Part shown: positions 52,939-55,008 of the stretch, in pieces | Position numbering within the stretch: position 1 is the stretch's first letter | Layout: each line of letters opens with the position of its first letter | Assembly (NCBI GenBank): GCA_045546615.1 | Contig: JAZQDD010000028.1 | Location: forward strand, 5,626 to 69,625 | Direction: 5' to 3' | Origin: Eubacteriales bacterium | GTDB taxonomy: Bacteria > Bacillota > Clostridia > Oscillospirales > CAG-272 | DNA: 64,000 nt | Position numbers and translations under genes: made by a program | The notes under the pieces: generated by a model | Database searches by the model: none | Told to the model about the DNA's origin: nothing | What the model saw: the letters and a program-made list of their open reading frames with translations, nothing else

Positions 52939-53331
52939 ATGATTGATTTTTTCGTAGCTCTCGGGGTAGCTCTGCTGTCGGGGCTGGGCGTGGGAAGCGG
53001 CGGTCTGCTCGTAGTGTGGCTGACGCTCCGCCGCGGACTCGGTCAGGTCGCGGCGCAGGGGATAAATCTCTTTTTCTTTCTCTTTTCGTCGGGCGCGTCA
53101 ACTGCTGTAAACTGCTTTCGCCGCCGCATCGCGTGGCGGCAGGTCATCCTGCTCAGCATCGGGGGCGTTGCGGGGGCGGCGGCAGGATATGCGGTGCTGA
53201 ATCTGCTTGATCCGTCGCTGTTAAAAAAGCTCTTCGGCGTGATGCTTCTGCTCACGGGCGCGCCCGCCCTGTTGCGCTCTCTATCGCATCTGAAAAAAGA
53301 AAAAACGGAACGCCGAACGAGCGATCCGTAA
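52939..53331 (+). CDS. TauE/SafE (TSUP) family membrane protein, C-terminal half-size unit
   Basis: The 130-aa protein has 4 TM helices and LLSGLGVGSGGLLVV. It is in the same reading frame as 52537..52917, separated by a single TAA plus 21 nt. Confidence 0.7.
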   Translation: MIDFFVALGVALLSGLGVGSGGLLVVWLTLRRGLGQVAAQGINLFFFLFSSGASTAVNCFRRRIAWRQVILLSIGGVAGAAAGYAVLNLLDPSLLKKLFGVMLLLTGAPALLRSLSHLKKEKTERRTSDP

Positions 53332-53390
53332 CACGAATATTTTTACACCACACCATTTATCATTATATCACAAATAAAAACAAATGTAAA

Positions 53391-53427
53391 GAGAAATTTG
53401 GTGTCTTTCACCAAATTCTCTCTTTTC
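53391..53427 (+). terminator. Intrinsic terminator after the TauE pair
   Basis: The hairpin is gagaaatttggtg-tctttc-accaaattctc followed by tctttt. Confidence 0.75.
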
Positions 53428-53464
53428 AATAAAAAAATATTGTAAACTTTGTATAAGTTGTGTA

Positions 53465-53493
53465 TTGCAAATGCCGAAAATATGTGCTATAAT
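53465..53493 (+). promoter_or_regulatory. Near-consensus sigma-A promoter with an extended -10
   Basis: It reads TTGCAA (53465-53470), a 17-nt spacer ending in TGc, then TATAAT (53488-53493). Confidence 0.7.
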
Positions 53494-53499
53494 ATAGAC

Positions 53500-53832
53500 A
53501 CAGGAAAGGAAGGTACGGTCCAATGTACAACTAACCACAAGGCATTCGGCAGCGACGTAAGTTCAAGTGTATCGGGCAGGGAGCAAAAAACCGAGACCTG
53601 AAGGCTGTGACGGCGGATCACAGATTTACGGCTCTCACATTTAAGGATAGATAAGCCCATATCTTAAACGACAAGTCAAGCCCGAATCCAAAAGCACCAA
53701 ACGCCTTTTAAAATCAGCAAAGGCAAGTTAACGAAAGCGAGGTATAAAAAATGATGTTAGATATCAAGGGTGAAGCGAAATGACCCTTGGTTGCGGAGAT
53801 AAAATCCTGCAATCAAGGGTCATTTCTTTTTT
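53500..53832 (+). ncRNA. Candidate independent transcript of about 330 nt (unclassified structured RNA and/or a 10-codon micro-ORF)
   Basis: It is bounded by the promoter above and a strong terminator: gaaatgacccttg...caagggtcatttc plus T6 at 53777-53832. Internal hairpins are ctgtga-cggcgga-tcacag (53604-53622), ttaaggata...tatcttaa (53641-53667) and gccttt-taaaatcagc-aaaggc (53702-53723). The micro-ORF ATGATGTTAGATATCAAGGGTGAAGCGAAATGA (53751-53783) has a GAGG 8 nt upstream. Confidence 0.45.
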
Positions 53833-53867
53833 GCGCAAAAATTTTACACGCTTGAGCCAAAAAGCTG

Positions 53868-53896
53868 TTGAAATCACGCGTGTTTTGTTATATAAT
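53868..53896 (+). promoter_or_regulatory. Sigma-A type promoter for queA
   Basis: It reads TTGAAA (53868-53873), a 17-nt spacer, then TATAAT (53891-53896). Confidence 0.6.
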
Positions 53897-53931
53897 ATAT
53901 ACTGTAAATTTATGTTTTATTAAGGATTGAT

Positions 53932-55008
53932 ATGAGTATTATTATAAACGATAAGCCCGCAACTGACCTCTCTACCGCAGATTTTGATTATTATCTCCCC
54001 GAGGAGCAAATAGCGCAACACCCCCTTGAGCCGCGCGATTCCTCGCGCCTTATGGTGATAGACCGCGAAAGCGGCGAGCTTGCCCACAAGCATTTTTATG
54101 ACGTTATCGACTACCTGCGCGAGGGCGACACGCTCGTTGTCAACGACTCACGCGTTATTCCCGCACGCCTGTACGGTCACGCCGAGGGACGCCCCGAGGC
54201 GGCTGTGGAGCTTCTCTTGCTCCGTCAGCGCGGCGACAGTGAGTGGGAAACGCTCGTAAAGCCCGGCAAACGCGCGCGCCTCGGCGCAAAAATGGTCTTT
54301 GGCGGCGGCGATATGACAGCCGCCGTAGTTGACATCGTCGAGGAAGGCAACCGCATCATTCACATCGATTTCGACAAGAATAAATACGAAAATATCTACT
54401 CAATGCTCTCCGAGGTCGGCGTAATGCCCCTCCCCCCTTACATAACGGAAAAGTTAAGTGACCGCGAGCGCTACCAAACGGTGTACGCGCGTGAGAACGG
54501 CTCTGCCGCCGCACCGACGGCGGGACTGCATTTCACCCCCGAGCTTCTTGAAAAGATCCGCAAAAAGGGCGTTGAGATAGTCCCCGTTATGCTCCACGTC
54601 GGGCTTGGCACGTTCCGCCCCGTCAAGGAGGACAGAGTGGACAGGCACATAATGCACTCGGAATACTTCTCCGTCAGCGAGGAGGCGGCACAGACCATCA
54701 ACAGCCGCCGCGCCGCGGGCGGAAGAACGATATGCGTCGGCACGACCTCGTGCCGCACGCTTGAAAGCGCGTCGGACGAGAACGGAACGGTACGCGCGAT
54801 GAGCGCGGACACGGGCATTTTCATCTACCCGGGATACAAATTCAAGGCGACGGACGCCCTGATAACCAATTTCCACCTGCCCAAAAGCACGCTCCTTATG
54901 CTTGTCAGCGCGCTTTACGACCGCGAAAAAATGCTTAACGCCTACGAGACTGCCGTCCGTGAAAAATACCGCTTTTTCTCGTTTGGCGACGCAATGATGA
55001 TATGTTAA
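53932..55008 (+). CDS. queA: S-adenosylmethionine:tRNA ribosyltransferase-isomerase
   Basis: It has [30 protein letters not shown] and [10 protein letters not shown]. Confidence 0.95.

Follow-up and report, generated by a model that had tools for sequence, protein, structure and literature searches.

A transcription unit between the TauE pair and queA

We analysed a window of 64,000 nucleotides (nt) from an Eubacteriales bacterium (assembly GCA_045546615.1, contig JAZQDD010000028.1, positions 5,626 to 69,625), in which a gap of 600 bp between a pair of TauE genes and queA houses a self-contained transcription unit at 53465-53832 on the + strand. A first inspection of the DNA letters, called here the sequence-only reading, had proposed at this place an unclassified non-coding RNA or a micro-open reading frame (micro-ORF) gene that is independent of queA. 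This proposal is supported and, because the RNA combines a covarying fold with a conserved micro-ORF, both of its halves seem to apply. The unit is a stand-alone gene for an RNA of ~335 nt (~53500 to 53832, + strand), with the following parts:

53465..53493, + strand: promoter of the RNA, with TTGCAA at 53465-53470, a 17-nt spacer with TGc, and TATAAT at 53488-53493 (extended -10)
53502..53513, + strand: 5′ extended Shine-Dalgarno sequence AGGAAAGGAAGG, positions +3 to +14
53523..53534, + strand: 5′ mini-ORF of 3 codons, ATG TAC AAC TAA (MYN, then stop)
53541..53689, + strand: structured core domain, from the consensus fold of five A-type orthologues
53733..53744, + strand: 3′ Shine-Dalgarno sequence GAAAGCGAGGTA (family consensus GAAAGAGAGGT), with GAGG at 53739-42
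53751..53783, + strand: 3′ micro-ORF MMLDIKGEAK, with GAGG 8 nt upstream and the stop codon TGA at 53781-53783
53777..53832, + strand: intrinsic terminator, stem GAAATGACCCTTGGTTGC / GCAATCAAGGGTCATTTC, apical part GGAGATAAAATCCT, T6 at 53827-53832

The promoter, which the sequence-only reading had called near-consensus with an extended -10 element, indeed scored 10/12 plus the TG extension in our promoter scan; transcription is predicted to start near 53500. It aligned at the equivalent place in 24 genus-level units and in ~140 members of the family described below. The strong intrinsic terminator with its T6 is also real, but its stem, put at 13 bp, measured 18 bp (53777-53794 with 53809-53826, including one G-U pair), and it is stronger than had been described; our scan tool missed it solely through its 8-nt loop limit. 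As had been pointed out, queA has a separate promoter of its own (TTGAAA-17-TATAAT, 53868-53896, score 11/12). None of the ATG-started ORFs in the unit is longer than 10 codons. The broader claim that no longer ORF exists fails for frames of 15-25 codons that begin with GTG or TTG, and these are not kept even in a relative that is 93% identical. The fold energy of the 334-nt RNA corresponds to z = -4.3 versus shuffles.

The RNA is a discrete, very abundant transcript at the level of transfer-messenger RNA (tmRNA), as seen in contigs of two gut metatranscriptomes (depths are given as a pair, one value per run). RNA contigs span ~53509-53830, and the unique middle of the unit reaches a depth of 3237 and 2078. 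The flanking genes TauE and queA have a depth of 2-6.5 in the same metatranscriptomes, and both flanking spacers, 53329-53469 and 53846-54127, have a depth of 0. As a yardstick, the tmRNA of the same organism has a depth of 2066 and 1130 in the same runs. Coverage begins within the bin 53470-53516 and is zero beyond 53845, and the contig over 53509-53763 shows 2 mismatches in 255 nt relative to the window. We assigned the transcript to the + strand because of the promoter, the terminator and the zero coverage to the right.

The depth of 0 after the terminator also means that there is no read-through into queA, whose own depth is ~1000-fold lower than that of the RNA. This largely refutes the idea that the unit is a cis-acting leader or attenuator of queA, in which a ribosome translating the micro-ORF across the 5′ arm of the terminator would determine how much read-through occurs. 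The idea draws on the stop codon inside the terminator arm, on an alternative hairpin that could form in this subclade by pairing of CAAGGGT (53765-71) with ACCCTTG (53783-89), and on a gene that often follows the long-type units of the genus and that, judging by eye, we take to encode a flavodiiron protein. However, queA owns its 11/12 promoter, the antiterminator pairing is confined to this subclade (long-type units read CAAGAT), and the next downstream gene at 108 loci of the family is co-directional in 54 cases and convergent in the other 54, the second copy in this genome facing a convergent gene as well. Leader-peptide attenuators of the ermC, tnaC and pyrL type resemble the unit in having a short ORF that overlaps a terminator element, but here the downstream gene is not consistent, read-through is absent and the alternative pairing is not conserved.

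The least probable of the explanations that we considered is a small protein gene on the minus strand, namely a 57-amino acid (aa) ORF at 53487-53660, which starts with ATG and is kept in the 93%-identical relative. The other three orthologues preserve neither its frame nor its length, no minus-strand promoter lies beside the covered region, coverage is 0 at 53846-53892, and its conserved C-terminus is the 5′ module of the RNA unit read backwards.

A multi-copy RNA family in gut Clostridia

The RNA from 53465-53832 is one of two paralogues of a widespread, highly expressed and uncatalogued family of gut-Clostridia RNAs. By BLAST we found a second copy (copy B; the window unit is copy A) in the same genome, lying across the break between contigs C59 and C40 its neighbours being a HAD-like gene on one side and, on the other, a convergent gene that, by eye, we presume to be glnA-like. 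The two copies share their first 74 nt at 97% identity and their last 117 nt at 90%, the middle being unshared, and copy B is as abundant as copy A (depth 4108 and 2666). Most species of the genus carry a single longer unit of ~470 nt, and five species carry A plus B. Copy A retains the 5′ hairpin of the long form (CTGTGA-cgrcgga-TCACAG, 24 nt, 96% identity), which in the window is the core hairpin CTGTGA-cggcgga-TCACAG at 53605-53623 and is common to the ancestral long form; copy B retains the last ~185 nt of the long form. From these alignments the pair looks like complementary retention after duplication of an ancestral long form.

Two side observations concern copy B. It broke the assembly: the end of C59 (L032 1829-1915) and the start of C40 (L031 1-429) overlap within the shared 5′ module. 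In metatranscriptome X20, a 505-nt contig of depth 18 (L031 336-840) runs from the 3′ module of copy B across the terminator toward the convergent gene, and it represents either ~0.7% read-through or the 3′ end of the transcript of the convergent gene.

The arrangement TauE-unit-queA is limited to five species, and the unit is present in 5/5 of them, so that it is conserved in the relatives that keep this synteny. The family reaches much further. BLAST found it in 24/61 relatives, and a covariance model (CM) of the 3′ module found it in 74/401 genomes of the order, with 1-4 copies each, and gave matches in 11 families labelled only 'same class' as well, so that further orders of Clostridia are included. 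The window unit itself scores 124 bits with CM R1, all family elements being present at 53465-53832. A pattern scan returned >120 loci, all of them in gut or rumen metagenome-assembled genomes (MAGs) of Faecousia, Acutalibacteraceae, Flemingiibacterium, Oscillospiraceae and similar groups. The multi-copy family and the second genome copy, like the 3-codon 5′ ORF and the conserved divergent promoter described below, go beyond the sequence-only reading. One member is carried by a cultured species, Vescimonas fastidiosa MM35 (NZ_AP023416.1, ~65.2-65.5 kb; L259 2290-2590), where it is unannotated and is flanked by spoVAC and a TetR regulator gene on the 861-kb secondary replicon; its 5′ ORF has 2 codons (MT, then stop) and its 3′ ORF reads MMLDIKSEG with a TAG in the stem.

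Scanning the whole window with the covariance models of Rfam 15, whose scope includes tmRNA, 6S, RNase P, SRP, T-box, raiA, ROOL and OLE, gave 0 matches at the gathering threshold, in agreement with the earlier proposal of an unclassified RNA. The best matches at E<=10 were terminator-hairpin noise far below threshold, and 7 other family members scanned against Rfam also gave 0 matches. The RNA resembles tmRNA in size (about 350 nt), in abundance and in having an internal short ORF, but it lacks a tRNA-like domain and ends in an intrinsic terminator; ARAGORN found no tmRNA in the window, and the tmRNA of this genome lies at C44:8144-8511 with the tag ADNNLAYAA. The idea of a CsrA sponge was set aside as well, the window RNA containing only 6 GGA motifs. 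Literature searches on the peptide strings and on abundant unannotated Ruminococcaceae RNAs found nothing relevant. One of the most abundant transcripts in a broad set of gut and rumen Clostridia (Oscillospiraceae, Acutalibacteraceae and their relatives), the RNA falls outside Rfam, lacks an annotation at the single annotated locus that we inspected and did not turn up in the literature searched. On the practical side, such RNAs dominate metatranscriptomes and break MAG assemblies.

Given 1-4 copies per genome, locations that differ between genera and an assembly broken at copy B, with the C59 end overlapping the C40 start, one could suppose that the unit is no host gene but a repeat that is mobile or selfish, MITE-like or carried by a prophage, or else an artefact of the assembly. 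We consider this very improbable. No match was found in 50,697 phage records, and the only plasmid match was the Vescimonas secondary replicon; we saw no terminal inverted repeats, target duplications, transposase-linked copies or insertion polymorphisms. The unit keeps a stable position within the subclade and is strongly expressed, and the constraints on its ORFs and hairpin hold across orders.

Neighbouring genes are common only to close relatives. The gene just downstream of the long-form unit (L007-L020) is usually the presumed flavodiiron-protein gene, and the neighbours in other genera include genes that, again by eye, we take to encode rubrerythrin and thioredoxin reductase. The long-form neighbours thus hint at a link to oxidative stress, but this link fails across the family.

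Constraint on two very short reading frames

The 5′ Shine-Dalgarno sequence AGGAAAGGAAGG is complementary over ~10 nt, with one bulged A, to the 16S tail GGAUCACCUCCUUUCUA, whose sequence we took from Vescimonas and from a complete genome belonging to the same order, the organism's own 16S 3′ end being absent from the assembly. Throughout the family this Shine-Dalgarno sequence is long (AGAAAGGGTGATACC or AGGAAAGGAAGGT) and complementary to the same tail of the clade. The ORF that follows it has 3 codons in 117/137 distinct family units, 2 codons in 12 and 4 codons in 5; a 5′ ORF of exactly 3 codons is expected by chance in ~6%. It nevertheless encodes >44 different tripeptides across the family. 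Since the length is fixed and the tripeptides vary, selection acts on how long the ORF is and not on its product. Both the Shine-Dalgarno sequence and the 3-codon mini-gene lie <=35 nt from the 5′ end of the RNA. Family-wide, the 30 nt after the mini-ORF tend, in the predicted fold, to pair locally or with the middle of the RNA, and a ribosome on the 3-codon ORF would, on this model, reach the helix that they form.

A different kind of constraint is found at the 3′ end. The columns of the 3′ Shine-Dalgarno sequence are invariant or nearly invariant in the A1 and A2 alignments. The 10-codon ORF MMLDIKGEAK, the well-spaced GAGG and the stop codon within the 5′ arm of the terminator are all present as the sequence-only reading described them; a second ATG at 53754 provides an alternative start, giving MLDIKGEAK. 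The family consensus is (M)MLD[IT]Kx[ED]xK, of 9/10 codons, with Lys as the last residue in 45/52 aligned ORFs, and >100 species share the start, frame, length and stop of this ORF. Both the stop codon and the last sense codon belong to the terminator stem. The stop codon occupies the same stem position in 96 of the 97 distinct CM matches (TAA 47, TGA 42, TAG 7), and in ~80 of the 97 it is preceded, at 9 or at 9 and 10 codons, by a start in the same frame. The second base of this stop varies only as A-U (62) or G-C (60), therefore both the pairing and the stop are preserved. The length, frame and stop of the 3′ ORF are thus under selection. Its Leu is encoded by TTA, TTG, CTA, CTC and CTG, that is, it switches between the TTR and CTN codon families. 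Besides the MLDIK type there are copies of the type M[LIV]EP(A/K)xxxK followed by a stop, which have the same length and the same stop-in-stem layout (A2 rows, e.g. L234, L236, L237, L239 and L243-L246) and which are often found in genomes with an MLDIK-type copy too.

The terminator hairpin is itself maintained. In an alignment that also holds antisense matches to the near-palindromic hairpin, both-sided changes occur at 17/18 stem pairs and 96.6% of cells are paired, a value reached by 0/500 shuffles. The loop is often conserved and purine-rich across A1 and A2 (GTGTAAAGAAAC, GGGTGAAAGACA; in the window GGAGATAAAATCC, 53795-53808). Loops of terminators are normally not conserved, and this apical loop may be a binding site.

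The region between the two ORFs is folded and variable. The core of ~150 nt is closed by a helix of 53541-53549 (GGcATTCGG) with 53682-53689 (CCGAATCC), and among the five A-type orthologues covariation is seen at 2 closing pairs and at several inner pairs. The core also contains the motif GGATAGATAAG at 53645-53655. The long-range pairing of tcgggc with gcccga that had been put forward did not hold up: the 5′ partner is changed in every relative, including the 93%-identical one, and gcccga is unchanged. Over the family the length of the unit ranges from 256 to 773 nt, and the middle is A-rich with only patchy motifs. It has no universally conserved core, as the four motifs are patchy and 45/142 units are without any.

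A ribosome-loaded RNA as the preferred explanation

We favour, with a probability of roughly 0.55, the view that this is a ribosome-loaded and very stable micro-mRNA or dual-function RNA. As judged from the sequence constraints and from analogy with known systems, the RNA would be built for ribosome occupancy at both of its ends. At the 5′ end, the strong Shine-Dalgarno sequence and the 3-codon mini-gene would hold a parked or re-initiating ribosome, serving as a stabiliser and a loading site, and this ribosome would block 5′-end-dependent decay in the manner of STAB-SD and hbs-type 5′ stabilisers. The second strong Shine-Dalgarno sequence would drive the 9/10-codon ORF as the translated cargo, which might be translated over and over without the ribosome leaving, as shown for mccA. 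The 18-bp terminator hairpin, with the stop codon in its base, would protect the 3′ end, and the RNA, being doubly end-protected, would accumulate to the tmRNA level. The middle would be a folded and fast-evolving part, of which, after duplication, copy A kept the 5′ hairpin domain and copy B the 3′ domain of the long form. We infer that the active output is the nonapeptide or the act of translating the MLD-type ORF.

Several known systems share parts of this design. STAB-SD of cryIIIA is a 5′ stabiliser of a Firmicutes mRNA. STAB-SD and the hbs mRNA of B. subtilis resemble the window RNA in having a very strong Shine-Dalgarno sequence near the 5′ end that is complementary to the 16S 3′ tail; there, a ribosome that is bound or initiating at this site keeps RNase J1 and RNase Y from acting, and a comparable protection is proposed for the window RNA. 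Unlike in these stabilisers, the Shine-Dalgarno sequence is here followed by a start codon and a nearly invariable 3-codon ORF. In the case of hbs, ribosomes that initiate on a strong Shine-Dalgarno sequence obstruct RNase J1 and hide an RNase Y site (PMC5737220). In the microcin C operons of E. coli and H. pylori, mccA is likewise a tiny ORF followed by an intrinsic terminator, yielding a short and very abundant transcript, and the short mccA RNA owes its abundance and exceptional stability to the binding of ribosomes (PMC4231749). The length of the ORF is conserved in both, a property that for very short ORFs is tied to reiterative translation: ribosomes translate ORFs of 2-8 codons repeatedly without being released, and do so less on longer ones (PMC6495379). 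In contrast to mccA, the RNA unit has no downstream mccB-E operon (mccB being the adenylyltransferase) and no read-through; its peptide has 9-10 residues and ends in Lys, whereas the mccA peptide has 7 and ends in Asn; and it has, in addition, a 3-codon cistron at the 5′ end, 150-500 nt of folded spacer and a stop inside the terminator stem.

The bar minigenes of phage lambda, ORFs of 2-8 codons, are toxic and deplete tRNA. They have the same succession of Shine-Dalgarno sequence, start, very few codons and stop, with ribosomes recycling on the same RNA, but the element described here is a conserved, chromosomal and highly expressed part of a host RNA. The dual-function small RNAs (sRNAs) RNAIII/hld of S. 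aureus, SR1/SR1P of B. subtilis and SgrS/SgrT of E. coli encode peptides of 26-43 aa and have known base-pairing targets. The window RNA is similar to them as an abundant structured RNA that is also predicted to encode a small peptide, but its ORFs are far shorter.

Some of our results weigh against a ribosome-loaded micro-mRNA. Translation of both ORFs is a prediction, and the predicted accessibility of the Shine-Dalgarno sequences is moderate, with an unpaired probability of 0.51 and 0.66 for the two sites. The five best-conserved codons of the 3′ ORF show 14 synonymous versus 46 non-synonymous variants, and the entropy by codon position (0.68, 0.43 and 0.82) amounts to a modest coding pattern; evidence for selection on the peptide sequence is, thus, suggestive and not decisive, and much of the nucleotide conservation of this ORF could be at the RNA level. 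A rarer second peptide type, M[LIV]EP...K, exists at the 3′ end. No partner enzyme, transporter or target adjoins the family units at the 108 loci. A pure mRNA model leaves the variable folded middle unexplained, and the abundance was taken from Logan contig depth, a rough and strandless measure.

These points bring in a possible, though less probable, alternative, namely a non-coding regulatory RNA (a base-pairing sRNA, a protein sponge or a 30S/70S decoy) in which the mini-ORFs merely bind ribosomes and determine stability or ribosome capture, and the peptide is functionless. An abundance at least equal to that of tmRNA would suit such an RNA, as would the folded core with its covarying helices and patchily conserved motifs, the 5′ ORF kept in length and not in sequence, the weak synonymous excess in the 3′ ORF, the second 3′ peptide type and the failure to find a partner gene. 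However, neither the length of the 3′ ORF nor, for the most part, its residues (M-L-D-[IT]-K) change from family to family, and its Leu is encoded by five codons of both codon families, something for which ribosome capture alone would have no need. The middle of the RNA is too variable to hold a conserved base-pairing seed, and no target or partner protein was identified, although no target search was made.

More speculative, and in our view rather unlikely, is a dedicated 'ribosome-engaging' RNA whose two tiny cistrons, of 3 and 9 codons, cycle 70S ribosomes, so that it would act either as a buffer or sensor of translational capacity or as a factory of an intracellular effector, the conserved nonapeptide MLD[IT]KxExK, and would form a fixed module with a divergent promoter that makes a hairpin RNA of ~30-60 nt. 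Were this true, it would constitute a new housekeeping RNA class of a rank comparable to 6S or tmRNA.

The RNA is unusual in design, with clear selection on how long its two ORFs are (3 and 9 codons) and on a stop that lies within a terminator stem. The nonapeptide, if produced, would be among the shortest conserved bacterial gene products outside biosynthetic clusters; if it is not, the RNA would be a new kind of ribosome-binding RNA. Either outcome bears on ribosome-based RNA stabilisation in Firmicutes, and with Vescimonas fastidiosa MM35 there is a cultured carrier in which the question can be addressed directly.

The upstream module

Upstream of the RNA promoter the duplicated and conserved module continues for ~130 nt, with the following features:

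53362..53390, - strand: divergent promoter, TTTACA, 17-nt spacer, TG-TATAAT; 11/12 plus TG, identical in copy B
53291..53329, - strand: terminator-like hairpin (53329 to 53305) and U-run (53304 to 53291), ~30-60 nt downstream of the divergent promoter
53391..53464, no strand assigned: spacer between the two promoters, A/T-rich, AATTTCT...ACAAAAAA...TTTGTAyA...TATTGCAA

The divergent promoter is present at a fixed distance in 101/104 family units, versus 18/104 in a control-strand scan. In 79 of these 101 units it is followed by a hairpin with a U-run, whose 3′ end lies at a median of 30 nt from the predicted start; a product of this size would be lost from the metatranscriptome libraries. The divergent promoter could make a tiny RNA, or could be the main promoter's partner in regulation or supercoiling.

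The spacer between the promoters is conserved between copies A and B and in ~110 family loci, and has a hairpin at 53395-53417 inside it. In many family members the palindrome TTTGTACAAA is found just upstream of the -35 element. Spacer and palindrome may be bound by a transcription factor or serve as an UP element.

The last codons of the second TauE half-gene (KKEKTERRTSDP and the stop, 53295-53331) are encoded by the A-run and the hairpin of the minus-strand terminator-like element; the tail of the protein and an element of the RNA module therefore overlap.

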